Shown here: positions 22,351 through 64,000 of the stretch, in pieces | Numbering within the stretch: position 1 is the stretch's first letter | Layout: every line of letters begins with the position of its first letter | From: a virus | Virus genome (UHGV): UHGV-0140522 | Reading direction: 5' to 3' (one strand) | DNA length: 64,000 nt | Program-made: the position numbers and the translations under genes | Notes under the pieces: generated by a model | Seen by the model: the letters and a program-made list of their open reading frames with translations, nothing else | Databases searched by the model: none | What the model was told of the DNA's origin: nothing

Positions 22351-22981
22351 ATTCCACCTTCACGCGTTCTTTGTAGTGCTTGGTAATCTGCATATCCGGG
22401 CGCAGCGCGTTCTTCAGGTCTTCGTGGGTCGTCGCCACCATTACCGTCGCACCAACCTTTCGAGCGGCACGCTGGAGGTTCGACGCCACAACCTGAGCGG
22501 TTACACGGTCGAGAACAGCGCCAAATTCGTCGGCTGCCCAGACTTTGGCGCCTGACTCGATCAGCTTGGCAATCTTGAGGCGGTATTTCTGGCCGTCAGA
22601 CATCTCGGATGGCTTGCGCACAAAGAGATAGGCGTCATTCAATCCGGCCATAGACAGCAGCCCCAGCGCTTCGCTGGTGGTTTTGCCCAGCTGGTCGATG
22701 ACGTTAACCTCATTGTCGAAGGTAAAGTCATCGATGGAGGCTACAGAAAGCCCTTCATCCTTCATCTGGCGTTGCAGTTCGCGCAGCACAACGGATTTGC
22801 CGGAACCGGATTGGCCGGTGATGTACACCACATCGCCCTGCTTCACTTCCAGCTCCAGATTGTCGTAAAGCGTCCACTCTTTTTCGTCCAGGCCAAGACC
22901 GAACGATTCGGCAATCTCCAGCGTGCGCGTGGTTTTGTTCACGCGGGTCTGAAACGATACATTGATGGTGTATTTGCTCAC
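22343..22981 (-). CDS. compact ABC-type ATPase (212 aa)
   Basis: Walker A YITGQSGSGKS, ABC signature-like MSDGQKYRLKIA, Walker B KVWAADEFGAVLD, H-loop VATTHEDL; no transmembrane or coiled-coil partner domain. Confidence 0.65.
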   Translation of the reverse strand: MSKYTINVSFQTRVNKTTRTLEIAESFGLGLDEKEWTLYDNLELEVKQGDVVYITGQSGSGKSVVLRELQRQMKDEGLSVASIDDFTFDNEVNVIDQLGKTTSEALGLLSMAGLNDAYLFVRKPSEMSDGQKYRLKIAKLIESGAKVWAADEFGAVLDRVTAQVVASNLQRAARKVGATVMVATTHEDLKNALRPDMQITKHYKERVKVEYA

Positions 22982-23679
22982 GCAGCCAGCTCCCCTGAAG
23001 AAACTTTCTCCGCATATGCCACGAAAGCGTCTACCCCGCTCTCTCCCGTGATTTCTTCCATGTGGGCAAGCAAATCCCCAACCACAATGGCAGAGCCAGC
23101 AGGGAGCGTTTTAAAGCCCAATACGTCGATGACGCGGACTTCTTCAGAGGCTACTTCGCGACTGATCTCGGTGTGCTCTTCTTTCTGGCGTTCCGTCTCT
23201 TCGCCCAGATCGAGCACCAGAGAGCCGGTTTCCATCTCTTCGGTCATGCTGCCGACAAGCACGTTCAGCTCGCGCTCTTCAAAACCGAAGACCTCGACGT
23301 CGCCCAGCACCAGGGATTCCAGTTCCTGCTGCAATTTGATGGCGTCGTAGTCAATACTGGCCAGGCGGTTGTCTTCCAGACGCTTCGCCTTCACTTCTTC
23401 TTCGCTCAGATCGTCGCGAACGATGACCGGCACACGCTCCAGACCAGCCAGAAGTGCCGCCTCGCGACGACCGTGGCCAGTAATGATGACGTCGTGCTTG
23501 TCGACCGTGATCGGCTGGTCAAAACCGCGCTTTTTGATGGCGGCCGCCAGGTCGCGGATCTGCTGTTCGTCATGTTTTTTGGCGTTCATCTCATACGGGA
23601 TGAGTTCTGCCGGGTTTCGATAGACGATTTCAAAGTTTTTGGTCATTACATACGCTCCTTGTAGTAGTCGACCAGCCAC
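22978..23679 (-). CDS. ParB/Srx-fold N-terminal domain protein with acidic C-terminal half (ParB-like 1)
   Basis: ParB box motifs (IVYRNPAELIPYEMNAKKH; ITGHGRREAA) followed by a Glu/Asp-rich region. Confidence 0.6.
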   Translation of the reverse strand: MAGRLLQGAYVMTKNFEIVYRNPAELIPYEMNAKKHDEQQIRDLAAAIKKRGFDQPITVDKHDVIITGHGRREAALLAGLERVPVIVRDDLSEEEVKAKRLEDNRLASIDYDAIKLQQELESLVLGDVEVFGFEERELNVLVGSMTEEMETGSLVLDLGEETERQKEEHTEISREVASEEVRVIDVLGFKTLPAGSAIVVGDLLAHMEEITGESGVDAFVAYAEKVSSGELAA

Positions 23680-24344
23680 ACCAGGGCTTCCCCGGCGTTC
23701 TCCATTTCGTTACCGGTATTGATTCCCTGCTCTTTGATGATGGTTTTGATGGTGTCGGCGACGCGATCTGACGCATCAAACGTCACTTTGAAGCGCATCG
23801 TCTGGTGTTCAGCGCCGACTCGCTCGGTTTTCTCGCGTTTGTCCTCATCGACCGGCTCGTCATCGCCACGGGAGAGCGCTTCCAGCGCTTCAAGATCGAT
23901 AACGGACGCTTTGGCGAGTGTTGCCGCCATTTCGTCGTCATACGGGGCGATATCGGACAACCGGTAGTCGATTTCAGACTGGATTTCTTCGATTAAGCGC
24001 TGCAAAGCGACCTGATCGTCTTCGCCGTAGCGTTCGTTATCGACGAGAGACATCTGTTTGGCCACCAGGTCGTTAATTTTGCCCACGGAGATGACGGGAA
24101 CCGTTGAAATGCCCTGCTCCATCGCGGCACGCCAGCGGTGTTCGCCACCGAGGATCTCAAAAATGCCCCCGTCCAGCTCCCGCGCCAGAATTGGCTTAAA
24201 AAAGCCCAATTTTTCGATCGAGCCTTTCAGTTTTTCGAAGTTTTGCGCCCCAACGGAGTTGGTATTCCAGGGATTCGGACGCAGGTTCGCGACTTCCACC
24301 TGCAGAATCGTAATTTTCACATCCATAATTCTGATACAATCCAT
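23646..24344 (-). CDS. ParB/Srx-fold N-terminal domain protein (ParB-like 2), first gene of operon; probable start 24326
   Basis: EVANLRPNPWNTN and EILGGEHRWRAA ParB-type motifs; acidic central region. Confidence 0.6.
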   Translation of the reverse strand: MDCIRIMDVKITILQVEVANLRPNPWNTNSVGAQNFEKLKGSIEKLGFFKPILARELDGGIFEILGGEHRWRAAMEQGISTVPVISVGKINDLVAKQMSLVDNERYGEDDQVALQRLIEEIQSEIDYRLSDIAPYDDEMAATLAKASVIDLEALEALSRGDDEPVDEDKREKTERVGAEHQTMRFKVTFDASDRVADTIKTIIKEQGINTGNEMENAGEALVWLVDYYKERM

Positions 24345-41013: not shown

Positions 41014-41147
41014 TACTACAGCCTGTCCGCTTATGGCGCGTAGCGGACTAGCTCATTGGGCAGAAGGTCCGCTCTGAGCGAGGAGCGGACATTCGCCCCT
41101 CTGTCGTATGTCCTTAAAGAGCGCACACCAGATATAAAAGAATTGCG

Positions 41148-42350
41148 TTAGTGTACCTTCCTATTTTGACGGGATGTTGCATATGTCATCACTACCGCCC
41201 CCAGTAGTAACAAACCACTTAAACCAAATGCACTTCTCCATCCCAGACTGTCGAATGCCAGACCTCCAGCCGTTGAACCAAGCGCAATCGATAGCTGGAT
41301 CACCGCAACCATGAGGCCACCACCCCTCTCTGCATCTTCGGGTAACGCTCGTGCTATCCATGTCCACCATCCTGTTGGCGCAGCCGTCGCAAGTAGCCCC
41401 CACAGGCTTAATAATACGGCAACGGCCCAGATGTGGTGTCCGACCAGCAGTAACGCACCAGTAATCGCGGCCATAAGCAACGGGATCATGATTAAGGTCT
41501 TGTAAAATTTGGCGTTCAGGAATGTTGAGACGATCATTGTGCCGACAAAACCTGCTATGCCTATTGCAAGCAAAATCAGAGAAAGGTTAGAAGGTCCCAC
41601 TCTGGTGACGCTCTCCAGAAAGGGGCGCACGTAGGTAAACAAAGCAAACTGTCCCATAAAGAAGAGCCCGCAGGCAAGCATTCCCGTTGGTACGATGGCA
41701 ACGCTGAACAGACGAAGCACAGACCCCTGTGGTTTTTGTGTTTTATCGCTTTCCATCGAAGGCAGGCTGAACCATTGCCAGATGAACGCAGCTATCGCAA
41801 GAGGGACGAGACATAAAAAGGCCCCACGCCAACCGACCGTTGTCCCCAGATAACTACCAAGCGGCGCAGCCACAACGGTGGCCAGCGCGTTACCGCCGTT
41901 AAAAATTGCCAGTGCGCGGGGAACCTGGTGCTGTGGCACGAGCCGAATGGCGGTTGCAGCCGACATTGACCAGAACCCTCCGATGACGACGCCAATCAGA
42001 GCCCTCCCCAGCATATAAATCGGATAGTCAGGCGCCATGGTGATAACTAACCCTGATATGGCCATTAAGACCGTTAGCCCAAGCAGAAGATATTTACGAT
42101 TCAGGTCTCCGGCAATATGGGAGATAGTCAGACTGGTCAGCACTGCCAGTGCGCCAGAGACGGCAATTCCTTGCCCTGCCAACCCTTCGGTAACGTGCAA
42201 ATCGCGGGCAATGAGCGTAAGCAGGCTGACTGGCATAAACTCAGAAGCGATCAGCACAAACACGCAAAGCGTCATGGCAAATACGCCGCTCCAGTATGCA
42301 TGCTTTTTTTCGTATGATGGTTTTAGACTTACAGTGGACATTATTAGCAT
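41148..42350 (-). CDS. MFS efflux transporter, NepI (purine ribonucleoside efflux) family-like
   Basis: 12-transmembrane DHA1 MFS; N-terminal region closely resembles E. coli NepI as I recall it ([38 protein letters not shown]). Confidence 0.8.
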   Translation of the reverse strand: MLIMSTVSLKPSYEKKHAYWSGVFAMTLCVFVLIASEFMPVSLLTLIARDLHVTEGLAGQGIAVSGALAVLTSLTISHIAGDLNRKYLLLGLTVLMAISGLVITMAPDYPIYMLGRALIGVVIGGFWSMSAATAIRLVPQHQVPRALAIFNGGNALATVVAAPLGSYLGTTVGWRGAFLCLVPLAIAAFIWQWFSLPSMESDKTQKPQGSVLRLFSVAIVPTGMLACGLFFMGQFALFTYVRPFLESVTRVGPSNLSLILLAIGIAGFVGTMIVSTFLNAKFYKTLIMIPLLMAAITGALLLVGHHIWAVAVLLSLWGLLATAAPTGWWTWIARALPEDAERGGGLMVAVIQLSIALGSTAGGLAFDSLGWRSAFGLSGLLLLGAVVMTYATSRQNRKVH

Positions 42351-42518
42351 CCCTTAATATCGAACCAGCCAGATTCAGGCGCAGTCGGGTCAGAAGTTAT
42401 TCAGGGAATAACGACATAATAGGTGGGTGAGAATATGGGGCGATGTGACATATTCGGCGTCACACCAGGCAGGTAAAAGCCACCCGTTTATGACAGGTGG
42501 CCTGGTAAACTTTTCGGG

Positions 42519-43667
42519 TTACCTTAAGTTTGCTTTGAAAAATTGCTCAAATTTGGCAAATGGGATCTTACCCGCAACGTTGTCGTACAGATCAACATGG
42601 TTTGCCCCAGGGACAATCACTAACTCTTTCTCTTTGCTGCCGATTGCCTTAAAGGCATCTTCAGCAAAATAGCGTGAATGGGCTTTTTCGCCGGTCACGA
42701 TGAGTGTAGGGATAGTAACTTCATTGGCGTAACTCAGCAGCGGCATATTCATAAATGACAGCGGCATGGTTGCGTTCCAGGCACCGGTTGAGTTGACCGA
42801 ACGCTCATGGAAACCACGCGGCATGCGGTAATAATCAAAGAACTCTTTCAATACTGGGTTAGGATTCGCGGGCAGAGTTTCCGGCAGAATACGATCGGAA
42901 GCGGTGACGTTGCCCTTCTCATCAACATAAATGTCATGCCCGCCTGGCGCGAAAGCGCCATTTTCCGCATCCTTCCAGCGCTGCGTGTTCAGATACTGCA
43001 ATACGGCACGACGATCGGCAGTGGTATAGCGGTCTTTGCCATCGCCCACGCCATGCCCCATCGCACGGCTCATGTCATACATCACGCTGGTCGCCACCGC
43101 CTTGACACGCGTGTCCATCGCGGCGTCGTTTAAGGCCATGCCGCCCCATCCGCAGATACCGAGCAGCCCGATACGGTTGCGATCCACCTCTTTTTGCAGG
43201 CCTAAGAAATCAACCGCCGCGCTGAAATCCTCGGTGTTGATATCCGGAGATGCGACGTTGCGCGGGTAGCCGCCGCTTTCGCCCGTGTATGAAGGGTCGA
43301 AAGCCAGAGTGACAAATCCCTGTTCAGCCAGCGTCTGCGCATACAGGCCGCTGGATTGCTCTTTCACCGCCCCGAAGGGGCCGCTAACAGCAATAGCTGC
43401 CAGCTTGCGATCACCACGATCCTTCGGGATGTAGAGATCCCCGACTAAGGTGATCCCGTATCGGTTCGGAAAGGTCACCTTACGGTGATCAACTTTCGTG
43501 CTCTCAGCAAAAGTTTTATCCCATTTTTCGACCAGCGAAACGGGCGCGTTCGGATTGGCTGTATCAGCGTAACTCATATTTGTGACTCCACTTAATGATG
43601 CGCATAACAACAGGGCGGGTATCGCAGTTGTCAATTTTTGGGTGAAAGCAGTCATCAAAATCCCCTT
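42519..43667 (-). CDS. secreted alpha/beta hydrolase (dienelactone hydrolase/YcjY-like)
   Basis: Signal peptide MKGILMTAFTQKLTTAIPALLLCASLSGV; nucleophile elbow GICGWGG; track ORF 42519..43733 has an upstream extension. Confidence 0.65.
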   Translation of the reverse strand, partial: KGILMTAFTQKLTTAIPALLLCASLSGVTNMSYADTANPNAPVSLVEKWDKTFAESTKVDHRKVTFPNRYGITLVGDLYIPKDRGDRKLAAIAVSGPFGAVKEQSSGLYAQTLAEQGFVTLAFDPSYTGESGGYPRNVASPDINTEDFSAAVDFLGLQKEVDRNRIGLLGICGWGGMALNDAAMDTRVKAVATSVMYDMSRAMGHGVGDGKDRYTTADRRAVLQYLNTQRWKDAENGAFAPGGHDIYVDEKGNVTASDRILPETLPANPNPVLKEFFDYYRMPRGFHERSVNSTGAWNATMPLSFMNMPLLSYANEVTIPTLIVTGEKAHSRYFAEDAFKAIGSKEKELVIVPGANHVDLYDNVAGKIPFAKFEQFFKANLR

Positions 43668-43825
43668 CATAAAACGTGCCAGAAACAGGTTTCCTACGGA
43701 CAACGCTGCTGTGCTTTGTTGCAATGCGCACATTATAGTTAGCAGAAATAGTACTGATTAGAGGGTGAAAAATGCTAAGATTGATAACATATTGTTCTGA
43801 ATTGTGATGCGGCAGCAGGGGAAGG

Positions 43826-44713
43826 ATGATGGCGAAACGGGAAAACTATAACGATCTCTATCTGTTTATGCAGGTCGTGCGAGAAGGGAGTTTTACTGCC
43901 GCCGCGCAGAGGCTTGGCCTGGCGCAGTCAGGAATTAGTCGTGCAGTGCGCGAGCTGGAAGAACGACTGGGCGTGCAGCTTCTGGTGCGTACCACGCGCA
44001 AGTTATCGCTCACCCATGCCGGCGAGTTGCTCTATCGAACCGTCGAATCTGGATTTGACGCTTTAGATATGGGGCTTGCCACGCTGGCCCATTATCGCCA
44101 TACCCCATCGGGTACGGTCCGTATTAATGCCAGTCAGCACGCCATTGATAAAGTGCTGCTGCCGAAGCTGGCGGTGTTTAAACAACGCTACCCAGATATT
44201 CGGCTGGAGCTCATCAGCGAAAGCCGGTTTGTCGATATTATTGCTGAGCGCTTCGATGCCGGTATACGTCTGGGCTCGGAAGTAGGTAGCGGTATGGTCG
44301 CTGTGCGCATTTCGCCCGATATGGAGATGGCCATTGTCGGCACGCCCGAGCACTTTCGTCGCTACGGATTTCCGCAAACTCCCTCCGATTTAGTTATTCA
44401 TCCCTGCATCGCTTACCAGTTTGGAGACGGCAGCCTGTATGCATGGGAACTCAATCAAGACGGTAAAAAGATAACCCATCAACCTCAGGGACAATGGGCC
44501 TTTGCTGACAGCTATATGGAAGCCAAAGCCGCCCGGCTAGGCCTGGGACTGGCTTATGTTCCGGAGGAATTAGTTTCTGATGATATAGAACAGGGGGCGC
44601 TGATCAGAGTTTTGCAATGCTACAGTCAGCGCCTGGAAGGTTCATATCTCTATTATCCGCACCGCAATGTGTCACCCGCTCTAAGAGCGGTTATCGATAC
44701 ATTGAGAATTTAA
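43826..44713 (+). CDS. LysR-family transcriptional regulator
   Basis: N-terminal HTH LYLFMQVVREGSFTAAAQRLGLAQSGISRAVRELEERLG, LysR substrate-binding fold length; divergent from the hydrolase. Confidence 0.85.
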   Translation: MMAKRENYNDLYLFMQVVREGSFTAAAQRLGLAQSGISRAVRELEERLGVQLLVRTTRKLSLTHAGELLYRTVESGFDALDMGLATLAHYRHTPSGTVRINASQHAIDKVLLPKLAVFKQRYPDIRLELISESRFVDIIAERFDAGIRLGSEVGSGMVAVRISPDMEMAIVGTPEHFRRYGFPQTPSDLVIHPCIAYQFGDGSLYAWELNQDGKKITHQPQGQWAFADSYMEAKAARLGLGLAYVPEELVSDDIEQGALIRVLQCYSQRLEGSYLYYPHRNVSPALRAVIDTLRI

Positions 44714-45335
44714 GGGATAAAGATGAGGTGGTTCGCAGGCCTGGGTAATAGTTGGAAAACAACGTCCGCTCCTGGCACATTGAAGACATTACGATGGGCG
44801 ATTTTTCCCCTCACGCGTGTGCGTAAATATTAAAATTTTTTCTAGAAAAGAAAAACTTACTTCCCAGAACAGGTTTTAATAAAACCTGAACTGAACGAAC
44901 GAAGTGAGTGAAGTTCACCTCGAACGAAGTGAGAGGTTGTCTTTTCAGGTAATACTCTCCCAGGGAGGTGAGTACAAAATTCCCTCACCAACCTGGTCGT
45001 TACATAACCTGAAAAGTTATGACCTAAGTCTACTGCCAGCTTAGGCTTGGGAAGTTATGGATGACAGCACCCCAGAACCGAGATCTTCCCACACTTTATG
45101 AAGGGGAGTACTGGATTCAACCTCTCGAAACACTCCAGACTCGACAATCATAAAGTGACCTTTCTCTCTGCCCACTTTGGTTCCCCCTTCCCCAACCCCT
45201 AAACGGTGCTGGTTCTACGCTGGTAGTGAGCTTTTTTAAACCTGACGCCAGTGACGCTATCCCCCACCCATCAGGTCGAGCTGCCGGAATCAATCCGGAA
45301 AGCGGGTAGATTTTATCACTGGCGATCTGCGTTTT

Positions 45336-45788: not shown

Positions 45789-46406
45789 TTACGCTGCCTT
45801 TTTACGTGGTCTCTTCTTCCTGACAACATTGGCAGGATCATAACCACCCAGCTTTTTCATCACCGCCAGCGGTATCTTGCTGATGGTGTGCCCAGCTTCC
45901 TGACAGTAGCCACGGAAGATAAGCAACATGCTACCACCAGGGTTGATGTTCACCTCCACCAGCCCAAGTTCAACATCCGGCTCAACGAACGCCACGCGGC
46001 CGCCAGACAAGATGACGGTTTCGTTGGCGCATTCAGCCGCACGCTCGTACCACTGCGTATCGAGGGATTGTGGTATCAACATGACTGTCGTCACTCCACG
46101 CGCCTGCTCGCGAATGGCTGCGTCTATCCAGGGGGTGATTTTGGAGTAGGGCGGGTTAAGGAACGCCACAGTGCCAGGTTCTCCCCAGCTGCACTTGAGC
46201 GCATCACGCTCAACACCGATAAAGTTCGGCAGGAGGGCATTATCTTTGTTGCAGGCGACGTCCACATCGAACTTTACGCCTATGTAACGTTGGATGGCGA
46301 CAAACAACCACTGCGGTGTGCGCCAAAGGTCGCGAAGAGAGGCATCACGCTCTCGCTTTTTGATTTTTTCGGCTGCGATCATTACTTTGTTCTGATAGGT
46401 AAACAC
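45789..46406 (-). CDS. dam: DNA N6-adenine methyltransferase (phage Dam family)
   Basis: LWRTPQWLF and FLNPPYS motifs; alternative ATG at 46382 because the listed start is a GTG inside a palindrome. Confidence 0.6.
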   Translation of the reverse strand: MFTYQNKVMIAAEKIKKRERDASLRDLWRTPQWLFVAIQRYIGVKFDVDVACNKDNALLPNFIGVERDALKCSWGEPGTVAFLNPPYSKITPWIDAAIREQARGVTTVMLIPQSLDTQWYERAAECANETVILSGGRVAFVEPDVELGLVEVNINPGGSMLLIFRGYCQEAGHTISKIPLAVMKKLGGYDPANVVRKKRPRKKAA

Positions 46407-53615: not shown

Positions 53616-55931
53616 TCAGATTTTGCACGCGCCATCGCACTCATCTTCTGGCTCAACAACCTCCGCAGCGGAAGGTTCTGACACCTGATCGTCGTCATCA
53701 CGCTTACCTGCGCCATCACGCGTGTTGTGGTAATAAAGCGTCTTCACACCTTGCTGATACGCAAACAGCAGATCCTCCAGCAGCTTCATCATTGGAACCT
53801 TGTCGCCAGGGAAGCGAGTCGGGTCGTAGTTGGTGTTCGCAGAGATGGCCTGATCGAAGAACTTCTGAATGATGGCCACCTTAGTCAGATAGCCGCGGTT
53901 ATCAGGCATATCCCACAGGTACTCGTACTGGTCTTTCAGTTGCGCGAAGTCCGGAACGACCATCTTCACGATGCCGTCTTTGGAAGACTTCACGGACACC
54001 GGGCCGCGGGGCGGCTCAATACCATTGGTGGAGTTGGTGATCTGGCTGGACGTCTCACACGGCATTTGAGCGGTCAGAGTGGAGTTACGCAGACCATGCT
54101 CACGGATACGGCCACGCAGTTCTTCCCACGGCATTTTCAGCTCGAAAGAGGTCTCCGGGTTGGTATCCAGCGTTTTGCGATAGTGGTCGACTGGCAGCTG
54201 GCCCTGTGCATATTTGGTGTGGGAGAACCAGTCACATGCACCTTTCGCTTCGGCCAGTCGGCAGCTCGCATCGAGCAGGTAGTACTGAATGGCTTCGAAG
54301 GTCTCATGTACCAACTGGTTGCCCGCAGCGTCAGAGTAGTTAAAGCCGTTCTTCGCCAGATAGTAGGCAAAGTTGGTCACGCCAATACCCAGACTACGAC
54401 GAGCTTTAGCCGGGATTTCTGCAGCAGCCATCGGGTAGTCCTGATAGTCGAGCAGAGAGTCCAGTGCCGCCACAGCGTAAAACGCCACGTCTTTCAGTGA
54501 GTCCAGCGTGCGGATCGCGCCCAGGTTGAACGCAGACAGGGTGCAAAGCGCGATTTCCCCGTTCGGATCGTCAGTGAACGCCAGTGGCTTGGTCGGTAGC
54601 GTGATCTCCATGCAGAGATTGGACTGGTGTACCGGTGCAATTTCCGGAACGAATGCGCCGTGATCGTTCATGTGGTCGACGTTGGCAATGTAAACACGAC
54701 CAGTGGAGGCACGCTCCTGCATCAGCGTAGAGAACAGGTCGACGGCCGGGATAGATTTCTTACGGATGCTCTCGTCGGCCTCGTACTTCAGGTACAGCTC
54801 TTCGAACTTGTCCTGATCAACAAAGAACGCGTCGTACAGTCCCGGCACATCGTGTGGGCTGAACAGCGTAATGTTTTCGTTGCGCACCAGGCGGCGATAC
54901 ATCAGACGGTTAATCATCACGCCATAGTCGAGATGACGAACGCGGTTCTCTTCAATGCCACGGTTGTTTTTCAGCACCAGCAGACTTTCAACTTCCAGAT
55001 GCCAGATCGGATAGAACGCTGTAGCAGCGCCGCCGCGAACACCGCCCTGAGAGCAGGATTTCACCGCCGTCTGGAAGTGCTTTAGGAATGGAATAACACC
55101 TGTGTGGGTGGCCTCGCCATTGCGGATCTCACTTCCCAGCGCACGCAGACGCCCAAAGCCAATACCAATGCCCGCGCGACGTGACACGTAGTCAATGATT
55201 GCGGAAGACGCAGCGCTAATCCCTTTCAGACTATCAGCAGCTTCAATCAGCACGCAGCTGGAGAACTGGCGAGTAGGGGTGCGCACGCCGGCCATAATTG
55301 GCGTTGGCAGAGACAGCTTGAATGTACTGGTCACATCGTAGAAGCCTTTAACCATCTCCAGACGCGTCTTACCGGCGTAGCCATCTTCCCAATTCTGGAA
55401 CAGGCACATGCCGACCAGCATGTAGAGTTGCTGTGGCCCTTCGTAGATAGCGCCAGTTACACGGTTTTGAACGAGATACTTGCTCGCCAGCTGCACGGTT
55501 GCGGCATAGCCGAAGTATTCGTCGCGCTTAGGCTTGATGTACACGCCCAGCTCGGCAATTTCTTCCTGAGAGTAGTACTTGAGAAGGTCTTCATCGTAAA
55601 CGCCACGGCTGACGTTGCTGACGATGTGATTGTAGAAATTCGGGTAGTCATACTGCCCGAAGGCGTCCTTGCGGATCTTGAACAGGCTCAGTCGCGCGGC
55701 AACCTGCGAGTAGTTCGGGGTTTCCGGAGAGATCAGATCGGCAGCGGACTTCACCAGCGCTTCATGCAGCTGGCAGGTGGTCATTCCGTCGAAAATGCTG
55801 GCAGCGGCGCCCATAGCGACAGCAGACGCGCTAACGTTGCGAATGTTTTCGACTCCCCACATCACAACGCGGTTGTATTTTTCCTCTGACAACGGCTCTG
55901 TGGAACCGTTACGTTTTACGATGCTTATCAT
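53616..55931 (-). CDS. nrdA: ribonucleotide reductase class Ia alpha subunit
   Basis: ATP-cone N-terminus (VKRNGSTEPL) and long blocks matching E. coli NrdA through the C-terminal ...GACKI. Confidence 0.9.
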   Translation of the reverse strand: MISIVKRNGSTEPLSEEKYNRVVMWGVENIRNVSASAVAMGAAASIFDGMTTCQLHEALVKSAADLISPETPNYSQVAARLSLFKIRKDAFGQYDYPNFYNHIVSNVSRGVYDEDLLKYYSQEEIAELGVYIKPKRDEYFGYAATVQLASKYLVQNRVTGAIYEGPQQLYMLVGMCLFQNWEDGYAGKTRLEMVKGFYDVTSTFKLSLPTPIMAGVRTPTRQFSSCVLIEAADSLKGISAASSAIIDYVSRRAGIGIGFGRLRALGSEIRNGEATHTGVIPFLKHFQTAVKSCSQGGVRGGAATAFYPIWHLEVESLLVLKNNRGIEENRVRHLDYGVMINRLMYRRLVRNENITLFSPHDVPGLYDAFFVDQDKFEELYLKYEADESIRKKSIPAVDLFSTLMQERASTGRVYIANVDHMNDHGAFVPEIAPVHQSNLCMEITLPTKPLAFTDDPNGEIALCTLSAFNLGAIRTLDSLKDVAFYAVAALDSLLDYQDYPMAAAEIPAKARRSLGIGVTNFAYYLAKNGFNYSDAAGNQLVHETFEAIQYYLLDASCRLAEAKGACDWFSHTKYAQGQLPVDHYRKTLDTNPETSFELKMPWEELRGRIREHGLRNSTLTAQMPCETSSQITNSTNGIEPPRGPVSVKSSKDGIVKMVVPDFAQLKDQYEYLWDMPDNRGYLTKVAIIQKFFDQAISANTNYDPTRFPGDKVPMMKLLEDLLFAYQQGVKTLYYHNTRDGAGKRDDDDQVSEPSAAEVVEPEDECDGACKI

Positions 55932-55939
55932 GTATCACC

Positions 55940-55970
55940 CAATAAAAAAGGCCACTAAATATAGTGGCCT
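55940..55970 (-). terminator. rho-independent terminator 10 nt upstream of the nrdA start
   Basis: Minus-strand GGCCACTATATTTAGTGGCC plus TTTTTTATT. Confidence 0.6.
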
Positions 55971-55976
55971 CATGTT

Positions 55977-56006
55977 AATAGATAAGCACTTACCTATCAA
56001 TTACCG
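55977..56006. promoter_or_regulatory. AT-rich palindrome family member; possible TTGATA-N17-TAACAT promoter on the minus strand
   Basis: taatAGATAAGCACTTACCTATCaattacc. Confidence 0.4.
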
Positions 56007-56008
56007 AC

Positions 56009-56614
56009 TTATAAAATTCCCGCAAGAACATCGCGAACCTGACGGAATTGATCAGTTTGCATACCTGTGTAAATCGACGCGACAGCGTCCGCAAGGTGCT
56101 CGTTTTTATTCACCAGCACTTCCTTACCAGATTGCTTCCGGCGCAACCACGGGGCGTTTGGCTGCTTCTGCGTAGCCCACTGAATGATCTCTTCCTTCGA
56201 CGTGGTCAGCTTATTCCCAACATAGTGCTTAATCTCGTTTGGCGTGACCTGTATCAGTGGCTTATCCACGCACGCCAGTACGCCAATGCAGATGCCGTAT
56301 GAGGTTTGTGCGCGACTGGACTGGCTACCAACCGGCAACTCGCAAAACACCATATGAGCCTGCTCGATTATGGGCTTGGCGGTACGCCAGATTTCGTTAG
56401 CGCGGCGCAGATCGTCGCTGTTTACGCGAACCGTCTTCTTGTTGCCACCAGCTTTGGTTTCCACCAATGTCAGGCCATGAATGTCCAGCTTATCCGTTTC
56501 CAGATCCAGCGTGCCAATCGCCAGGCCAAAGTTGCTCATTGAAGGGTCGACGCCGACCACACGAATGGTTTTACTCATTTTTGGTCTCCTTACCACGTAG
56601 CCCAGGTTGGGCAT
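56009..56614 (-). CDS. RuvC/YqgF-like Holliday junction resolvase (putative)
   Basis: IRVVGVDPSMSNFGLAIG resembles the RuvC-fold motif I. Confidence 0.45.
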   Translation of the reverse strand: MPNLGYVVRRPKMSKTIRVVGVDPSMSNFGLAIGTLDLETDKLDIHGLTLVETKAGGNKKTVRVNSDDLRRANEIWRTAKPIIEQAHMVFCELPVGSQSSRAQTSYGICIGVLACVDKPLIQVTPNEIKHYVGNKLTTSKEEIIQWATQKQPNAPWLRRKQSGKEVLVNKNEHLADAVASIYTGMQTDQFRQVRDVLAGIL

Positions 56615-57336
56615 TCCATTAGTTTCTGTTCAAGTGTCTTCTCCGGCTCGCGAGTTGGCGGCTTCGGAATGTCGCTAACAACATGAATGCTATCGTTGGT
56701 TAGAACGCCTGCCGCAATATCTGCATCAATCATGCTCTGGCCGATGAAATGTCGCATGATGTCGATCAGATGGCGTGCAGCCGTTTCATTCGCGCTGAAT
56801 ACATGGGGGAGAAGAACTTCAATAACCGCTACTTCACATCCCTCCTCGTAAAAGCAAAGTTTCGCCCGCTTTGAGATTGGCGCGTGCCGATCATAGTCAA
56901 CAGAGAAGCTGGCGAAGGCAGCACCCGGCATTGCAACGTGATCTGCGCGTGCGTTAGCGTGTCGAATCAGATTAGTGAATGCGGTGCTGATGTGCGTCTC
57001 CATCGCATTGAAGAGCGCATTTTCTTGGATGTTCAGCGTTCCGGTTTCAGGAATCACAACGAACCCCGGCCCAGAATGTGGGAGATATCCACCTTCCGTA
57101 AATGGATTAATAAGGATCGGCGCAGTGCTTCCTGACGGCAGCATAGACAAACTCGGCATCAACGGAGTCGATGACAACAGACTGGTTAATACCGAGAACT
57201 GGTCGTCATTGATGTTTTCGTTTTTCCACAAAAGTGCAGGCGCAGCTGCTTTTGCCGTATGGTGGTTTATCAGCTTTATAGACTGCATCACGGCAAACAT
57301 CTGCAAAAACTGCGTTCGGCTCAAGTTAAACGACAT
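56590..57336 (-). CDS. hypothetical protein (248 aa)
   Basis: Between the SbcC-like and RuvC-like genes. Confidence 0.4.
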   Translation of the reverse strand: MSFNLSRTQFLQMFAVMQSIKLINHHTAKAAAPALLWKNENINDDQFSVLTSLLSSTPLMPSLSMLPSGSTAPILINPFTEGGYLPHSGPGFVVIPETGTLNIQENALFNAMETHISTAFTNLIRHANARADHVAMPGAAFASFSVDYDRHAPISKRAKLCFYEEGCEVAVIEVLLPHVFSANETAARHLIDIMRHFIGQSMIDADIAAGVLTNDSIHVVSDIPKPPTREPEKTLEQKLMECPTWATW

Positions 57337-59242
57337 AGCTGCGACCCTCTTTGACTTCGACTGTGATGGTTTCCCGGAACCACGATTTCATCTCTTTGTG
57401 GGAAATGATCATCACTGTGCCGCGTTCACGCGCTTTGGCTTCCAGAATCCCCATGAGACGCTCCAGACCGGCAGTGTCGAGCGCGTCGTCAATTTCATCC
57501 CCGATAAACAGCTCGATATTCTTACTGGCGCGACTGGCAACCAGATCCTGCAAAGCAAGAGAGCACGCAATGCGTACCTTACGCTTCTCGCCACCAGACA
57601 ACGTCTGGAAGGATTTGCTGGAGCCTGTTTTGGTTACGCTGATATTGAATTTGTCGCGATACTCGCCTTTCTTTGTTGTCTCCATTGTCGACCATTCGGC
57701 AACGATATTGCCGTCCGACAGCGTGTTGAGATACTCCGCAGTCCTGATGTTCAGGAAAGGCGTAACAGAAGTCAGGATGTGTGAACGCACGCCAGCTGGG
57801 GAGTAAACCTGGCGAGCTTTCTCCAGCAACAGAGCCTGTTCCTGAATGCTTTTTAACTCTTTTTTAAGTACTGCATGATTAGATTTATTGGCAGCCAGGT
57901 TGTCTTCATGGCGCTTAATGACAGCCAGAAATGGGTTTACCTCTGCCATGATGCGATTCACGTCAGTACGCGCCCGCGCCACCATCGCTTCGACGGCCAC
58001 AACTTCACGTTCTCGATGACGCAGCGCACTTAGCTCATTGGTCAGGCGTTCGATTCTGGCGATGATTTCTGAGACGTCGGGTGTGGCTGCGACCAGTGCA
58101 GACTCGATGCCGAGCGCTTTCTCAAGACGAGCTTTGTGTTGAGCCACTGCCGCTGCTGATGCCTGCGCCTGGCCGATCTCATTACGCGCTTGTTCAATGA
58201 AACTCTCCTTCACGGTGGACAAATCTTCTTCGCAGTAGGGCTTTCCGCACGTAACACAAGGCGCCCCGACCTTTGTGCTGACCTCTTCTGCTTTGGTTTT
58301 AAACGAACGAGCACGGTTCATGGACTCGTTCTGTGCCGCTTCTGAAGTGCGGATGCTTGAGCGGATCTCCGTAATCGCACCGCGCACCTTCAGCAGTTTG
58401 GCGTCATGCTCTTCTTTGGAGGCCAGCTTGCTGCGTTCGCCAGCAATCGCGTTTTCCGTATCCCGGATCTGTTCCGGCAGCGAGCGAATTTCCATCACGA
58501 CTTCAGACAGTGTTACCTCCGCGCCAGCCAAATCGAATCGAGCCTTGTCCAGACGTTCGCCGCGATCGCGCTCCCAGCTATCAGAGGACGCTTTGGCCGC
58601 CTCAATCTCTGACTGTGCGGTCTCGATAAGCGTGAGACAGGCGTCCATTTTGGATTTGGTAACATCCATACGTGCGGCAGCTGCGTTGGCTCGCTCGCGA
58701 GCAATTGCATAGGCTCGCGTTAACCGGTCGACGCCAGCGGCTTCTTCAACGATGGTTTTGAGGTTCTTGTCGGACATACCCGGCAGATCTGGCATTGCTT
58801 CCTGACTGGCGTAGATGGACGCCATGAACACCTCTTTCGATGCACCAATCAGGCGTTCAACGAACTCCTGCGTCAGTGTGTCTTTGCCTTTGGTCATATC
58901 ACCGTCTTCGCCACGGACGATCAGCCGGTTCTTGAACTCTTTGTGTTTGCGGTGGCGAATGATGGCGTAACGCTTTCCTTCATCCTCAACAGTCACCATC
59001 ACGCGACAGTTTTTCTCGTGGCCTGTAGACAACACGTCGTCACCTTTAACGCCATGCGCAGTTTCGCCATACAGACACCACATCAGGCTGTTCATCAAAG
59101 TCGATTTGCCCGCGCCATTGCTGGCAGCAGAGGAGTCGCCACTGTTAACACCCTGAATGAGCACCAGACCGCGTTGGTCTAACTCAACTTCGGCGCTGGC
59201 TAACGCCATGAAGTTCTCAACCTGGAGCTTTAGAAATTTCAT
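57326..59242 (-). CDS. sbcC: SbcC/Rad50-like ATPase (T4 gp46-like recombination nuclease subunit)
   Basis: N-terminal Walker A GVNSGDSSAASNGAGKST, long coiled-coil middle with CxxC zinc hook (CVTCGKPYC), C-terminal signature and Walker B. Confidence 0.75.
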   Translation of the reverse strand: MKFLKLQVENFMALASAEVELDQRGLVLIQGVNSGDSSAASNGAGKSTLMNSLMWCLYGETAHGVKGDDVLSTGHEKNCRVMVTVEDEGKRYAIIRHRKHKEFKNRLIVRGEDGDMTKGKDTLTQEFVERLIGASKEVFMASIYASQEAMPDLPGMSDKNLKTIVEEAAGVDRLTRAYAIARERANAAAARMDVTKSKMDACLTLIETAQSEIEAAKASSDSWERDRGERLDKARFDLAGAEVTLSEVVMEIRSLPEQIRDTENAIAGERSKLASKEEHDAKLLKVRGAITEIRSSIRTSEAAQNESMNRARSFKTKAEEVSTKVGAPCVTCGKPYCEEDLSTVKESFIEQARNEIGQAQASAAAVAQHKARLEKALGIESALVAATPDVSEIIARIERLTNELSALRHREREVVAVEAMVARARTDVNRIMAEVNPFLAVIKRHEDNLAANKSNHAVLKKELKSIQEQALLLEKARQVYSPAGVRSHILTSVTPFLNIRTAEYLNTLSDGNIVAEWSTMETTKKGEYRDKFNISVTKTGSSKSFQTLSGGEKRKVRIACSLALQDLVASRASKNIELFIGDEIDDALDTAGLERLMGILEAKARERGTVMIISHKEMKSWFRETITVEVKEGRSYVV

Positions 59243-59471
59243 ACAATGCCTCTAACTTTTTGATTCAAATGCTGGCCTTTTCGCAGTTGAAACTCCGTGT
59301 GGGCTGGGAAAGATCTGCGTTTCAGTACGCCTTGTTTGCTCAGTCTTCCCAGATAAAACGCCACAGGGTTTCCGTCAGGTGGGTAGGGCTTGTGGAACAT
59401 CACCGTCTGGCCTCGTTCAAGTCTTTTCATCGTGGAGATGAAGTCCCGAAAGCTCCCAGAATGGCTCGTAC

Positions 59472-60557
59472 TCACACTGCCTCCGCACTCTCCGCTTCGG
59501 TCAGGATCTCCTGACACAGCATGTCCAGCTTGCTCAGGTCGAAGCCGCCGTCAGTGTCGTGAACGATCTTGCAGTACGCCGCGACGGACTCGCCCAGGCT
59601 GTCTATTTTGCTGGTCTCCGCAGTACTGGCAGTGCCTTCCATCATCGATGCCTTGCGGATGAAGTTGCAGACGACACCCTTAGCGCCCATTGTTTTCAGG
59701 ACGTTCTGGAGTTTGATGCCTTCTTCATCGCTCTCAACAACGGCACGAAAGCGCACGTAGTTACCGCGAATTTGGTCGTCTTCCACATCGTCCTCAAGGT
59801 TGACGAACTTGGGTGCGGAGGTTTCGTGGTGGGTGAATGTGCCGTCAGGGTTGACGATCATGAAGCCAGCCAGAGAGCCAACATCGCCCCAATTCTGGTG
59901 CGTCAGCGCCCCGATGCTAACCACTCCAGGCAGCACTTCTTTGTGGTTGTGGTAGTGTCCGGACAGCAACAAACGGAAGCCGATATCTTTCAGTTCCTGT
60001 GCGTCGATGCCGACATCAGGCATGGTGGGGATCGCTTTGTTGATCGAGGTATGCACAACGACATCGTGGTTGTCGCCATCCAGCCCGGAACGCAGTGTTT
60101 TGAGGTCGCTGATAAGCTCTGCGTGGTTATTGCGCCAGCTAATCAGGTGGACGGTAACGTCGCCCATTTTGATGGAGTGAGAGCGTTTGCCGCAGACGAT
60201 TTCCACACCGATTGAGCGCAGAGAGGCCGCTGCATTGGCGCTGTATACGGAATCGTTGGTTTCGAGGTCGTGGTTGCCGGCCAGCATGACCACTTCGAGG
60301 CCCAACTCTTTGATGATCCACTCGTAAGTTTCGGTCACGAAATGCAGGACGGAAGGCGATATAGCACCACGAACATGGAAAGTATCACCAGCCACCAGCA
60401 TGTGCTTGCAGCCCGCAGCTTTCATGGCTTTGGCAGCTTCTTTCGTGGCGTCCAGTTGGATCTCCAGTCGAGAGTTCAGCCCGTCAGCGTTTGTTGTCGC
60501 AAAAGCATCCCAACGATGATAATGGGGATCTGATATCACCCCGTATGGCAATGTCAT
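59472..60557 (-). CDS. sbcD: SbcD/Mre11-like nuclease (T4 gp47-like)
   Basis: Calcineurin-like phosphoesterase motifs (SDPHYH, AGDTFH, GNHD, SGHYH). Confidence 0.75.
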   Translation of the reverse strand: MTLPYGVISDPHYHRWDAFATTNADGLNSRLEIQLDATKEAAKAMKAAGCKHMLVAGDTFHVRGAISPSVLHFVTETYEWIIKELGLEVVMLAGNHDLETNDSVYSANAAASLRSIGVEIVCGKRSHSIKMGDVTVHLISWRNNHAELISDLKTLRSGLDGDNHDVVVHTSINKAIPTMPDVGIDAQELKDIGFRLLLSGHYHNHKEVLPGVVSIGALTHQNWGDVGSLAGFMIVNPDGTFTHHETSAPKFVNLEDDVEDDQIRGNYVRFRAVVESDEEGIKLQNVLKTMGAKGVVCNFIRKASMMEGTASTAETSKIDSLGESVAAYCKIVHDTDGGFDLSKLDMLCQEILTEAESAEAV

Positions 60558-60696: not shown

Positions 60697-60732
60697 ATGG
60701 TGGTGACAATATCTCAACCGTATGGGGGCTTA

Positions 60733-61227
60733 TTACTTCGGATCGCGAAACAGCATCTGCGTGCCTTTGGGGGACGTGTCAAAAAGGAGAAAACCTCTGC
60801 GTTTTAGCATGTCGGCCATTTGCGAGGATTTGACATAGCACTTCGCCATCATCGGCTGGATCGGGTTTGAATCGATCATGTCGGACACCAGCATTGACCC
60901 ATAGCCTTTCCCGCGTAGCTCTTTGACGATACTGACGGCACGGAGTTCAAGTCGTGGCGCACCGGTTGGATCGAGTGCGGCACAGAGCCAGATTAGCCCT
61001 GCTTTTTTGTCATCAGAACGGCGCAGCAGGATGTAGATATAATGCCCGGAGTATTGGCCCTGCTCGTTCGTCTTGATGGCTAGCCTGGTCTGCTTCTCAA
61101 AGGTTTTACCCCCCTTTGATGTGAGGATCTCTTCGTAGAAGTGACCCTTGCGTGCGCCGTCTTCGAACTCACCCATGATAAATGGCATGTCTGCCACAGT
61201 TGCTGCCCTTGAATAAAATTCACTCAT
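60733..61227 (-). CDS. GNAT-family N-acetyltransferase
   Basis: ELRGKGYGSMLVSDMI (Q/RxxGxG/A CoA-binding motif); 164 aa. Confidence 0.6.
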   Translation of the reverse strand: MSEFYSRAATVADMPFIMGEFEDGARKGHFYEEILTSKGGKTFEKQTRLAIKTNEQGQYSGHYIYILLRRSDDKKAGLIWLCAALDPTGAPRLELRAVSIVKELRGKGYGSMLVSDMIDSNPIQPMMAKCYVKSSQMADMLKRRGFLLFDTSPKGTQMLFRDPK

Positions 61228-61302
61228 GTATTAATCCCTAAAGCTCTCAGTGTCTTTCTAAGACACCATATTTTATGCCCCGGTAAAACCATGAGTTTAC
61301 GT

Positions 61303-61947
61303 TTAAAACGTCTCAGGGGGCTTCTGACGCGCTACGCTGATGTCGATTACCCCAGCTTTTGGGCGAGGGTCGACAAGATTCAACTCTTCAGCGCTGTGAT
61401 ACTCCGTATCGAACTCCCGATCGACATGGCGAATGTAGATGGCCGTGAGAAGGCTGTCGTCGTTCAGGAAGTGTCCGTAGGATTTGCGGATCACTTCGCC
61501 AACCTTCTCGATCTTCTCCCCACCCATGCAAAGATGGTTAAACCGGCTATGTTTCCGCAGCATCTCATCCACCGGGCCGGAGTAGACCTTATCGACTCTC
61601 CCGAACCGGATGATATTTCCAGTATCAGCCTCAACCAGACAAACGAGCTTGCCAGGTTCGACCCGGTCTCGCCATGTTACACCAGAGCGCAGTGTGTTGA
61701 AGTAGGGAGCGTCTAATCCGATGATCGGTTTACGAAATGCCAGCAGTGGCACGTAACGTATGCAACTGTTCAGGTGGAAGTGCGCACCGGCGTCGTGGAG
61801 TTTGAGCCGGGTTTCGTTAATCGGGCACTTCGACGCAATGCCACACAGGTCGCAGAGCAACTTCTGTTTGTTCAGGCTAGTGTTCGATTCAATGGTGTAG
61901 GAGCCATCTTCAAGACGGCGAACCCAGCGCGTGCGTTTGAGATCCAT
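61303..61947 (-). CDS. hypothetical protein (214 aa) adjacent to replication origin
   Basis: No motif recognised. Confidence 0.4.
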   Translation of the reverse strand: MDLKRTRWVRRLEDGSYTIESNTSLNKQKLLCDLCGIASKCPINETRLKLHDAGAHFHLNSCIRYVPLLAFRKPIIGLDAPYFNTLRSGVTWRDRVEPGKLVCLVEADTGNIIRFGRVDKVYSGPVDEMLRKHSRFNHLCMGGEKIEKVGEVIRKSYGHFLNDDSLLTAIYIRHVDREFDTEYHSAEELNLVDPRPKAGVIDISVARQKPPETF

Positions 61948-62035
61948 AATTCTTATTCAAATAGTTTTGTCCGGGGCAACGATAACTGACAAGGCGCACC
62001 GATGTTTGCAAATGCCTGTTTTACTTATACCCATT

Positions 62036-62112
62036 ATTCACAGGACCGATCCAATAATTAGATCCCCAGAGAGATCCTACAGAAGATCAAAAGAGATCCC
62101 CGATCGTCTCCA
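62036..62112. promoter_or_regulatory. GATC-rich origin block A (6 Dam sites in ~60 bp)
   Basis: GATC at 62048, 62061, 62073, 62085, 62095, 62102; block repeated with 3 GATC at 62413-62490. Confidence 0.55.
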
Positions 62113-62142
62113 GCCGTTGCGGTTACTGGCCTGAGAGGGGGT

Positions 62143-62252
62143 TACTATCCACTATGGGGAGGAAAGTAACCTCTGTAGAGAGCATATTAACCGCTATGAA
62201 GAGCAAAACAACCTCTCTGGAGAGTGGTCGGCATCCACTGTAGTGAGTAGGA
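62143..62252 (+). repeat. iteron array 1 (5 x ~21 bp)
   Basis: ATCCACTATGGGGAGG / ACCTCTGTAGAGAGCA / ACCGCTATGAAGAGCA / ACCTCTCTGGAGAGTG / ATCCACTGTAGTGAGTAGG. Confidence 0.6.
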
Positions 62253-62412
62253 GACATTGTCTTAACTGGATAACTCAGTGCCTGTGTTTCTACGTCAGGT
62301 AGCTGATATTCATAGAGATGTTGGAAGTTTTGCGTTCAGGCGTGTTTGTTTCGACCACACATTATCCCCAGAAGGGGAGTGATGGCTGGTTATGCAATTA
62401 CCTGATTTTTAT

Positions 62413-62490
62413 ACACAGGCCCGATCCAGTAATTCAGATCCCAAAGAGAACCCAAGAGACCCACAAAGACCCAAAAAGATCCCCGCACCC
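62413..62490. promoter_or_regulatory. GATC-containing origin block B (paralogue of block A)
   Basis: ACACAGGCCCGATCCAGTAATTCAGATCCCAAAGAGA...AAAGATCCCC. Confidence 0.5.
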
Positions 62491-62528
62491 CGCAAACCGT
62501 TGTGCCGCATGGTCTTAGAGGTGATCGA

Positions 62529-62655
62529 TATCCACTATAGAGAGAAGATCAGCCACTATGAAGAGCAAACCAACCACTGTAGAGAGTAGAAAAACCACTA
62601 TAGGCGGTAGGATAACCGCTGTGATGAGTGCTACTATCCACTGTAATCAGCAAAG
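62529..62655 (+). repeat. iteron array 2 (6 x 21 bp) immediately upstream of repA
   Basis: Consensus AACCACTGTAGAGAGTAG; e.g. CCAACCACTGTAGAGAGTAGA, AAAACCACTATAGGCGGTAGG. Confidence 0.7.
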
Positions 62656-62691
62656 GCCACCAAAGCGGTCGAATAAAAAGAGACACTTGGA

Positions 62692-63747
62692 ATGAGCGAA
62701 AACGGCAATAAAAACATAGCGATCGTTGAAGCATTCTCAGAAACAGACAAAAAGACAGGCGAAGTTGTTACGTTAGTTCCTAACACCAACAACACAGTTC
62801 AGCCCGTTGCTCTGATGCGTCTTGGTCTCTTCGTTCCAACGCTGAAATCGACCGCCAGGGGCAGAAAGGGGCAAATGGTCTCTATGGACGCCTCTGCTGA
62901 ACTCAAACAGCTGTCTCTGGCCAAAGCTGAAGGGTACGAGGACATAAGGATCTCCGGTGTTCGTCTGGATATGGATAACGACTTCAAAACGTGGGTTGGC
63001 ATCATCCACGCGTTCGCTAAGCACAAGGTTGTTGGCGACACTGTCACGTTACCGTTCGTCGAGTTCGTCAGGCTCTGTGGTATACCAACGGCCAGATCGT
63101 CAGCGAAGTTACGTAAGCGCCTGGACAGTTCTCTAACTCGTATCGCCACAAACACGATCTCATTCCGCAGTAAAGGCTCTGATGAGTATTACGTGACGCA
63201 CCTTGTGCAGACAGCAAAGTACAGCACCAAGAACGACACGGTCTCTCTGCAGGCTGATCCTAAGATTTTCGAACTCTACCAGTTCGACAAAAAGGTTCTT
63301 CTGCAACTCCGGGCAATCAACGAACTCTCCAGAAAAGAATCCGCGCAGGCGCTCTACACCTTCATCGAAAGTTTGCCTCCTGACCCGGCACCAATCTCGT
63401 TGGCTCGCTTACGCGCCAGACTTAACTTAACCAGCCGCACCATCACCCAGAACGCGACAGTCAGGAAGGCGATGGAGCAGCTGCGGGAGATCGGCTATCT
63501 CGATTACACCGAAGTGAAGCGCGGCAGCTCGGTCTACTTCATCATCCACTATAGGCGGCCGAAATTACGCCCAGCACTGCCACCAACTAAAGCTGCGCCT
63601 GAAGAACCAGAAGACATCTTGCCTGGTGATGATCAGGAGGACATTATCGATGTTGTTCCTGAAGAAAAAGAGGGTGAGATGGTCATGTTGAGCAAGGAAG
63701 AACTGGCGATTCTCGAAGAGCTGCGCAAGGCAAAGGCTCGCAAATAG
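62692..63747 (+). CDS. repA: replication initiator RepA (P1 / RepFIB family)
   Basis: N-terminal [27 protein letters not shown] and [25 protein letters not shown] blocks match P1/RepFIB RepA as I recall them; flanked by iterons. Confidence 0.8.
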
Positions 63748-63980
63748 CCCAACCACTGTAGAGAGTAGAAAGGCTCACTATCCGCTGTAGTGAGCCTTTT
63801 GTTTATCTGAAATCCGCTAACCACTGTAGTGAGTAACAACTACCGAATAGTAACCACTGTAGGCAGTAGCGCTCAAATAACGAAATAAATGTTAGTGGTT
63901 ACAAACCTAGATGAAACAAGGGCTGCGAGGTTAGTGGTCACTGGGTGACTTGTTAAATCCACTCTCTATAGTGGTTATCG
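63748..63980. repeat. iteron array 3 downstream of repA (copies in both orientations) including the repA terminator hairpin
   Basis: CCAACCACTGTAGAGAGTAG, TAACCACTGTAGTGAGTAAC, TAACCACTGTAGGCAGTAGC; inverted copies GTTAGTGGTTAC, GGTTAGTGGTCAC, CTATAGTGGTTATCG; hairpin AGGCTCACTATCCGCTGTAGTGAGCCTTTT at 63770-63801. Confidence 0.65.
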
Positions 63981-64000
63981 TTGCTCCCTTCGCTATTGGC

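Follow-up and report, generated by a model that had tools for sequence, protein, structure and literature searches.

The Salmonella phage SSU5, the plasmid pHCM2 of S. Typhi, and the plasmid pMT1 of Yersinia pestis belong to a single supergroup of phage-plasmids, whose members are typed as IncFIB (PMC7969092; bioRxiv 10.1101/2025.09.12.675607), and the replicon common to these three elements is already known. When cloned, the pMT1 replicon cures pMT1 through incompatibility, as tabulated in PMC6199537 from Ni et al. 2008, and Escherichia phage Cyrano is a plasmid with ~5.5 copies per chromosome that is induced with ciprofloxacin (PMC9928086). Here, we analyzed the replicon around the gene repA near the right end of a 64,000-nucleotide stretch of the virus genome UHGV-0140522 (called the window hereafter, with all coordinates counted from its first letter). 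A preliminary description had proposed a P1/RepFIB-type plasmid replicon at 62036-63980; our comparisons suggest that the locus is very probably the plasmid-maintenance replicon, IncFIB of the pHCM2/pMT1 type, of an SSU5/pHCM2-type phage-plasmid and would work like P1 oriR and RepFIB.

In P1, the annotated order is a DnaA site, five Dam sites, five incC iterons at 21 bp, repA, and the incA iterons; the repA promoter lies within the incC iterons, and nine incA iterons begin at the repA stop. The RepFIB replicons of F, P307, and pO157 have a DnaA box and a GATC block, then ~5 upstream iterons (BCDD'D'', the origin), and the control iterons E-K downstream; in the case of F/pO157, these downstream iterons are sufficient by themselves to displace the replicon (PMC11983097). 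The window follows the same order as both systems. P1 and the window element are, furthermore, both phage-plasmids, while the P1 virion is of the myovirus type and the window element has a lambda-like siphovirus tail module.

Identity of the replicon and its initiator

When a region of 2051 bp (61950-64000) was used as the query for nucleotide comparison, 337 plasmid records and 3 phage records were matched. The identity was 98.4% to the Salmonella plasmid pN16S089-2, 97.7% to pHCM2 of S. Typhi CT18 (NC_003385.1), 96.5% to phage SSU5, 96.1% to pMT1 of Y. pestis CO92, 83-90% to plasmids of E. coli and E. albertii, and 83% to Cyrano. Given the high nucleotide identity to the pHCM2 reference, the IncFIB type of which was taken from PLSDB (NC_003385.1), the locus falls in the pHCM2-type IncFIB; indeed, IncFIB typing holds for every retrieved relative with the same repeat type, namely pHCM2, pN16S089-2, pMT1, pP59A-2, pGS04EC-1, and the E. 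albertii plasmid. Most of the matching plasmid records (317 of 337) are non-mobilizable, and some plasmids with the same replicon are typed as conjugative. The resemblance also extends over the window as a whole: pN16S089-2, a circular plasmid of 107 kb, is collinear with it, and the identity is mostly 91-98% but falls to 81-88% in a few short stretches. The annotation of this plasmid lists terminase, portal, capsid, tape-measure, lambda-like tail, nucleotide-metabolism, and SbcCD-like genes. A collinear genome, a lambda-like siphovirus module together with the replicon, and extrachromosomal relatives thus place the element in the SSU5 supergroup. In pHCM2, SSU5, pMT1/pFra, and Cyrano/pLF82, we found the same two origin modules, three iteron arrays, and neighboring genes as in the window; the pHCM2/SSU5/pMT1-type replicons differ from it only by point differences within the replicon, and Cyrano has this double-origin replicon as well (83% identity). 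A 49-kb phage-plasmid described in a 2026 preprint was also considered, but its replicon is controlled by CopA/CopT and is irrelevant here.

The repA gene (62692-63747, + strand) encodes a protein of 351 amino acids, which is predicted from Pfam, homology, and PHROG to be an iteron-binding initiator of the Rep_3 family (PF01051/PF21205). Of the two winged-helix domains in such plasmid initiators, WH1 (Rep3_N) was detected at 43 bits (E 7.6e-11; curated cut-off 22.4) and WH2 (Rep3_C) at a borderline 21.0 bits (cut-off 21.1), and the protein matches PHROG 775 with an E value of 1.3e-147. RepA is homologous over the whole core to the P1 RepA/RepFIB family, with 64% identity to the RepFIB Rep of F over 300 amino acids (E 9e-144), 52% to the Rep of IncFIB(K), and 49% to P1 RepA over 267 amino acids (E 4e-92). 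The initial assignment of RepA to the P1/RepFIB-type initiators was therefore correct, and the block of residues pointed out there is identical in P1 RepA. Its ATG aligns with the start codon of RepFIB Rep, which is a CTG as determined by experiment (PMC11983097). RepA also has an acidic C-terminal tail of ~58 amino acids, which is common to the F and IncFIB(K) proteins and absent from P1 RepA. Read-through into incA was considered as the source of this tail but was rejected, as the tail is shared by the Rep proteins of F, IncFIB(K), and the Klebsiella phage-plasmid, and P1 alone is without it. No NCBIfam model matches RepA. Directly after the repA stop, a terminator-like hairpin with a T-run (63768-63800, + strand; 14-bp stem, inverted repeat I16) overlaps an iteron. 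We also noticed that the RefSeq phage records NC_018843, NC_005856, and NC_050152 as well as PHROG 775 call P1-type RepA a "replication helicase"; this label is wrong for a winged-helix iteron-binding initiator.

The extrachromosomal state proposed in the preliminary description is well supported by the 96-98% identity to pHCM2, SSU5, and pMT1, by the collinearity with pN16S089-2, and by a survey of 5426 complete E. coli genomes, in which all 192 matching places were on plasmids and none was chromosomal. The proposal had also leaned on the lack of an integrase. Inside the window this is true, and no homologue of the tyrosine recombinase of the relatives was found there; the closest relative, pN16S089-2, nonetheless encodes a "site-specific integrase" (record positions 55810-56916) ~17 kb beyond the right end of the window. 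An integrase just outside the window had been named as a sign of integration, and one is literally present in the relative, but its presence does not change the substance, given that the matching records are all plasmids or phages and that the E. coli places are all on plasmids. An integrated prophage with the replicon as a relic would be in line with this recombinase and with the report of S. Agona genomes having a chromosomally integrated plasmid that matches the SSU5 repB/parA region (bioRxiv 10.1101/2025.09.12.675607). Tyrosine recombinases are, however, persistent genes of the SSU5 supergroup, and phage-plasmids may carry recombinases for dimer resolution (PMC7969092), a role that by analogy may also be that of the SSU5 enzyme. 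Together with the 337 plasmid and 3 phage records, the absence of any chromosomal place in the E. coli genomes, and the purifying selection on repA and both origin modules described below, this makes an integrated relic hardly credible, and the element is better regarded as an extrachromosomal phage-plasmid.

Two origin modules in tandem

The iterons were located by using the 18-mer consensus AACCACTGTAGAGAGTAG of the preliminary description at three or fewer mismatches, and a position weight matrix (PWM) was then built from the sites and iterated. The consensus matched at eight places, all within 62168-63976, as compared with 0.03 expected by chance. The PWM scan gave 16 strong 20-bp iterons flanking repA, of which five and six are upstream and four direct and one inverted are downstream; this agrees with the previous count of ~15 iterons in three arrays, with both orientations downstream. 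In the remaining 61.9 kb outside the replicon, a single site exceeded 13 bits. In many iterons, the 5' half, TATCCAC(T), is similar to the core of the DnaA box, TTATCCACA.

An origin of the P1/RepFIB type is composed of a DnaA box, GATC repeats, and ~5 iterons at 21 bp upstream of rep, and this unit was found twice in the window, in tandem and ~375-383 bp apart. The distal module A begins with the DnaA box TTATTCACA (62034-62042, + strand), which matches TTATNCACA, reads TTATCCAC in Cyrano, and corresponds in the alignment to the DnaA site annotated in P1 oriR. It is followed by six GATC in (A/C)GATCC-type repeats (62048-62105), presumably the opening and Dam/SeqA-controlled region, and by iteron array A with five 20-bp RepA-type iterons (62146-62251, + strand; spacing 21, 21, 21, and 23 bp; PWM 19.8-24.9 bits). 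After a spacer (62252-62396), the proximal module B begins with the DnaA box TTATACACA (62409-62417, + strand), at which Cyrano and E. albertii have the perfect box TTATCCACA. The module alignment and the GATC scan revealed in its GATC block (62423-62481) three GATC and three decayed repeats (GAACC, GACCC, and GACCC). Iteron array B then contains six iterons (62529-62654, + strand; spacing 21-22 bp; PWM 18.3-28.2 bits) and stops 37 bp before the repA ATG; by analogy, this array is presumed to be the origin iterons and the operator/promoter region of repA. The last of the upstream iterons (62635, beginning with TATCCACTG) sits where P1 and the Klebsiella phage-plasmid have their right-hand DnaA boxes.

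The paralogous blocks with six and three GATC were already recognized in the preliminary description, and the GATC scan as well as the 77% identity between 62020-62260 and 62395-62665, which align along their full length, bear out that observation; the DnaA box in front of each block had gone unmentioned. The six GATC within 58 bp at 62048-62105 are the densest cluster of the window, in which ~0.2 such clusters per 64 kb are expected from a Poisson distribution. In the alignment with P1 oriR, cluster A corresponds to the five Dam sites annotated there, and ~3000 FIB-type plasmids match the GATC block of module A at 79-81% identity. Indeed, the origin core aligns at the DNA level with the origins of P1 oriR, an IncFIB(K) plasmid, and the Klebsiella SSU5-like phage-plasmid, with GATCCAATAAT, AGATCC repeats (heptamers), CCCGATCG, and a CTGGC-T-AGA stretch in common; CCGATCG in the core is common to the window and P1.

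In the systems we compared, by contrast, namely P1, F, IncFIB(K), and the SSU5-like phage-plasmids of Klebsiella and E. coli, only a single origin module was found. The single module of P1 is flanked by two DnaA boxes on each side, and the P1 iterons (GATGTGTGCTGGAGGGAAA) are unrelated to those in the window; F RepFIB also differs in its iteron sequence and in starting Rep with CTG instead of ATG, while sharing with the window RepA the C-terminal tail. Phage-plasmids of the pKpn/pSLy3 type (K. pneumoniae p1_020037 and E. coli pECAZ155_2) are SSU5-like and resemble the window in that the replicon adjoins a 214-amino-acid gene and SbcCD-like genes, with a Rep ~47-50% identical to the window RepA and a P1-like origin core. 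Unlike the window, they have the iteron TATGCTGTCAGCGGTAA and an iteron array bordered by DnaA boxes to its left and right, and the gap from the conserved 214-amino-acid gene to rep is ~200 bp in these phage-plasmids versus 745 bp in the window.

Of the segment with the two modules, at least 80% is covered in 334 of the 337 records that have this replicon, and both modules are present in all of the eight lineages aligned. Module A retains its six GATC in every one of the eight, and the decayed repeats of module B are the same in nearly all; as judged from the sequences, these three non-methylatable repeats predate the split between the pHCM2 and Cyrano lineages. We used the third codon positions of repA, which are 65% identical to those of Cyrano, as a proxy for neutral sites. 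The inter-module spacer is 63% identical to Cyrano and thus evolves at the neutral rate, whereas the identity is 81% in core A, 84% in iterons A, 85% in core B, and 90.5% in iterons B. Since both modules are conserved across the lineages and above the neutral rate, the duplication is an old one, with purifying selection acting on both copies. Capture of module A from another FIB replicon was examined as an origin of the tandem and was rejected, because its iterons fit the PWM of module B. In the searchable literature, which does not reach the older pMT1/pHCM2 papers, we found no description of the double origin with unequal GATC or of the fine structure of the pHCM2/pMT1 replicon. The tandem duplication of the whole origin module is confined to this lineage and is a mildly new, little-described detail.

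The two modules could be two origins, or an origin with a built-in control locus. It is plausible, and perhaps even probable, that only one of them is the working origin, in either of two ways: (i) module A is the origin and module B is just the repA operator, or (ii) module B is the origin and module A is an upstream handcuffing/titration locus like a second incA. Consistent with such a reading, module A has all six GATC in every lineage and is matched by the ~3000 other FIB plasmids; module B has lost three GATC, yet is the more conserved copy (85-90% versus 81-84%) and occupies the position of the single origin in P1, F, IncFIB(K), and the Klebsiella phage-plasmids. On the other hand, the DnaA box, the GATC repeats, and the full iteron array are retained in both modules, and both evolve more slowly than neutral sites, so that the sequence alone cannot demote either copy. 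Alternatively, the duplicated origins might be used without being redundant, the copy with six GATC and that with three differing in their sensitivity to Dam/SeqA sequestration; we offer this idea tentatively and regard it as rather doubtful.

Downstream iterons and a possible mode of control

As in the P1 and RepFIB systems, a second group of iterons was found 3' of rep. In the window, these incA-like iterons comprise four direct ones with irregular spacing of 29-39 bp (63750-63870, + strand; PWM 20.5-28.2 bits), two inverted half-iterons, GTAACCACTAAC and GTGACCACTAAC (63891-63902 and 63930-63941, − strand; direct repeat D19), both of which are below the PWM threshold, and an inverted full iteron (63958-63977, − strand; PWM 26.7 bits). 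The array is hence in both orientations, unlike the nine incA iterons of P1, which are on one strand in the annotation used. In pN16S089-2, pHCM2, and SSU5, the downstream array extends ~350 bp past the position of the window end and includes ~10 more iterons, of which 2-3 are direct and the following 5-7 are inverted at ~40-bp spacing; the complete relatives thus have ~15 downstream iterons and ~27 in the whole replicon. The window end (64000) falls inside this array, and the replicon end at 63980 given in the preliminary description is therefore an artefact of the window edge. Constructs made from 62036-63980 would miss most of the downstream control array and, by analogy with P1 incA and F-FIB E-K, would probably show raised copy number and weak incompatibility. 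A further iteron-like site, CATCCACTATAGGCGGCCGA, lies in the 3' part of repA (63543-63562, + strand; PWM 18.5 bits), near the point at which P1 RepA ends and incA begins; an identical 13-mer is present in the iteron at 62595-62607, and the site is conserved in pHCM2, SSU5, and pN16S089-2.

By reference to P1 and RepFIB, the replicon would operate as follows. RepA would bind as monomers to the upstream iterons, along one helical face, and, together with host DnaA, open the adjacent GATC-rich region, after which theta replication would be carried out by the host replisome. Methylation of the GATC sites by Dam would be needed for firing, and SeqA would sequester the hemimethylated sites after initiation. 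The repA promoter would lie in the proximal array B, which would lead to autorepression by RepA. The downstream array, the role of which in copy control is suggested by P1 and F, would titrate RepA and handcuff the origin iterons, resulting in low copy number and incompatibility. Indirect support for this scheme is given by the relatives, in the curing of pMT1 by its cloned replicon, the maintenance of Cyrano at ~5.5 copies, and the displacement of F/pO157 RepFIB by its downstream iterons.

Several points weigh against this scheme or parts of it. A simple promoter scan gave no convincing sigma-70 promoter on the + strand in array B, and the position of the repA promoter thus remains deduced from P1/RepFIB. 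Unlike P1 and the Klebsiella phage-plasmid, the window lacks a DnaA box on the right-hand side of its origin iterons, and whereas parAB follows immediately downstream in P1, the replicon here has no par operon next to it; in the relatives, small hypothetical genes or a Cra-like gene follow the array. As searches of PDB chains by sequence and by profile found no solved structure for RepA, the assignment of its fold is that of Pfam. Dependence on Dam and SeqA is suggested only by the homology of the GATC core to P1 oriR, and a division of labor between modules A and B cannot be read from the sequence. An Rfam scan of 61000-64000 gave sub-threshold noise only, and thus no known antisense or regulatory RNA is seen there.

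Gating of initiation by methylation had been proposed together with a role of the element's own Dam. The first half of this proposal is reasonable in view of the P1 oriR homology, and a Dam-family gene is indeed encoded: a phage-type N6-adenine methyltransferase at 45789-46406 (− strand), which matches PF05869 (4.9e-37) and TIGR01712 (2.7e-32, above its cut-off). This gene nonetheless sits 16 kb from the replicon and is not part of the replicon proper. Enterobacterial hosts, furthermore, have their own Dam and SeqA; tying the gating of the origin to the enzyme of the element is hence speculation, and that half of the proposal is unsupported.

The locus might also, or instead, be the lytic replication origin of the phage. 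Its neighbors are replication/recombination genes: SbcCD-like genes are found at 57326-60557 in the window, and genes of the RecA-like and polymerase types lie downstream in SSU5. The element also supplies parts of a replisome itself, among them DnaE, a primase, and a helicase. Low-copy maintenance is, however, the role of iteron/Rep_3 replicons that have control arrays downstream, and the lytic growth of P1 uses a separate oriL/repL. The same replicon drives the plasmid pMT1 and plasmids typed as conjugative, and the cloned pMT1 replicon exerts incompatibility, according to the tabulation in PMC6199537. A lytic origin therefore appears quite unlikely, and we consider the locus to be a plasmid-maintenance replicon.

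Neighboring features and significance of the replicon

Adjoining the replicon divergently is an open reading frame (ORF) of 214 amino acids (61303-61947, − strand), which has no Pfam match, belongs to phrog_2105, and is annotated as "ASCH RNA-binding domain" in Cyrano. It is found at this position in all SSU5-like phage-plasmids examined, including those of Klebsiella and E. coli with differing Rep and iterons, and a functional link of this ORF to replication is possible. At 60699-60721, the window is without a segment of ~0.6 kb (CP082664 34525-35135) that holds a hypothetical gene of 167 amino acids (504 bp); in pHCM2, SSU5, and pN16S089-2, this gene is flanked by the SbcD-like and GNAT genes. 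The region 22343-24344 (− strand), ~38 kb away from repA, contains two adjacent genes with a ParB-N domain (233 and 232 amino acids; 22978-24344) and a gene for an ABC/AAA-type ATPase (212 amino acids), which may be partition functions or a ParB/Srx-type nuclease set.

Also, a 3.7-kb cargo insertion (41086-44759) is absent from the closest phage-plasmid relative and matches part of an 80-kb plasmid of Kosakonia cowanii (NZ_CP107078) at 99.6% identity. It carries genes for an MFS transporter (41148-42350, − strand), an alpha/beta hydrolase resembling dienelactone hydrolase/PETase (42519-43733, − strand), and a LysR regulator (43826-44713, + strand). The second-densest GATC cluster of the window, with 4 sites in 77 bp (43360-43436), is inside the hydrolase ORF and is probably due to chance.

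Plasmid-typing databases already contain this replicon, and the SSU5/pHCM2/pMT1 group is well described, so that the replicon has little value as a discovery. Its value for annotation lies in a base-level map of the DnaA boxes, the GATC repeats, and the ~27 iterons; because the same replicon drives pMT1 in Y. pestis and pHCM2 in S. Typhi, such a map could aid the design of curing tools based on incompatibility. If the two modules with unequal GATC indeed differ in their response to Dam and SeqA, furthermore, they would add a layer of control over copy number or host range that is not described for P1 or RepFIB.

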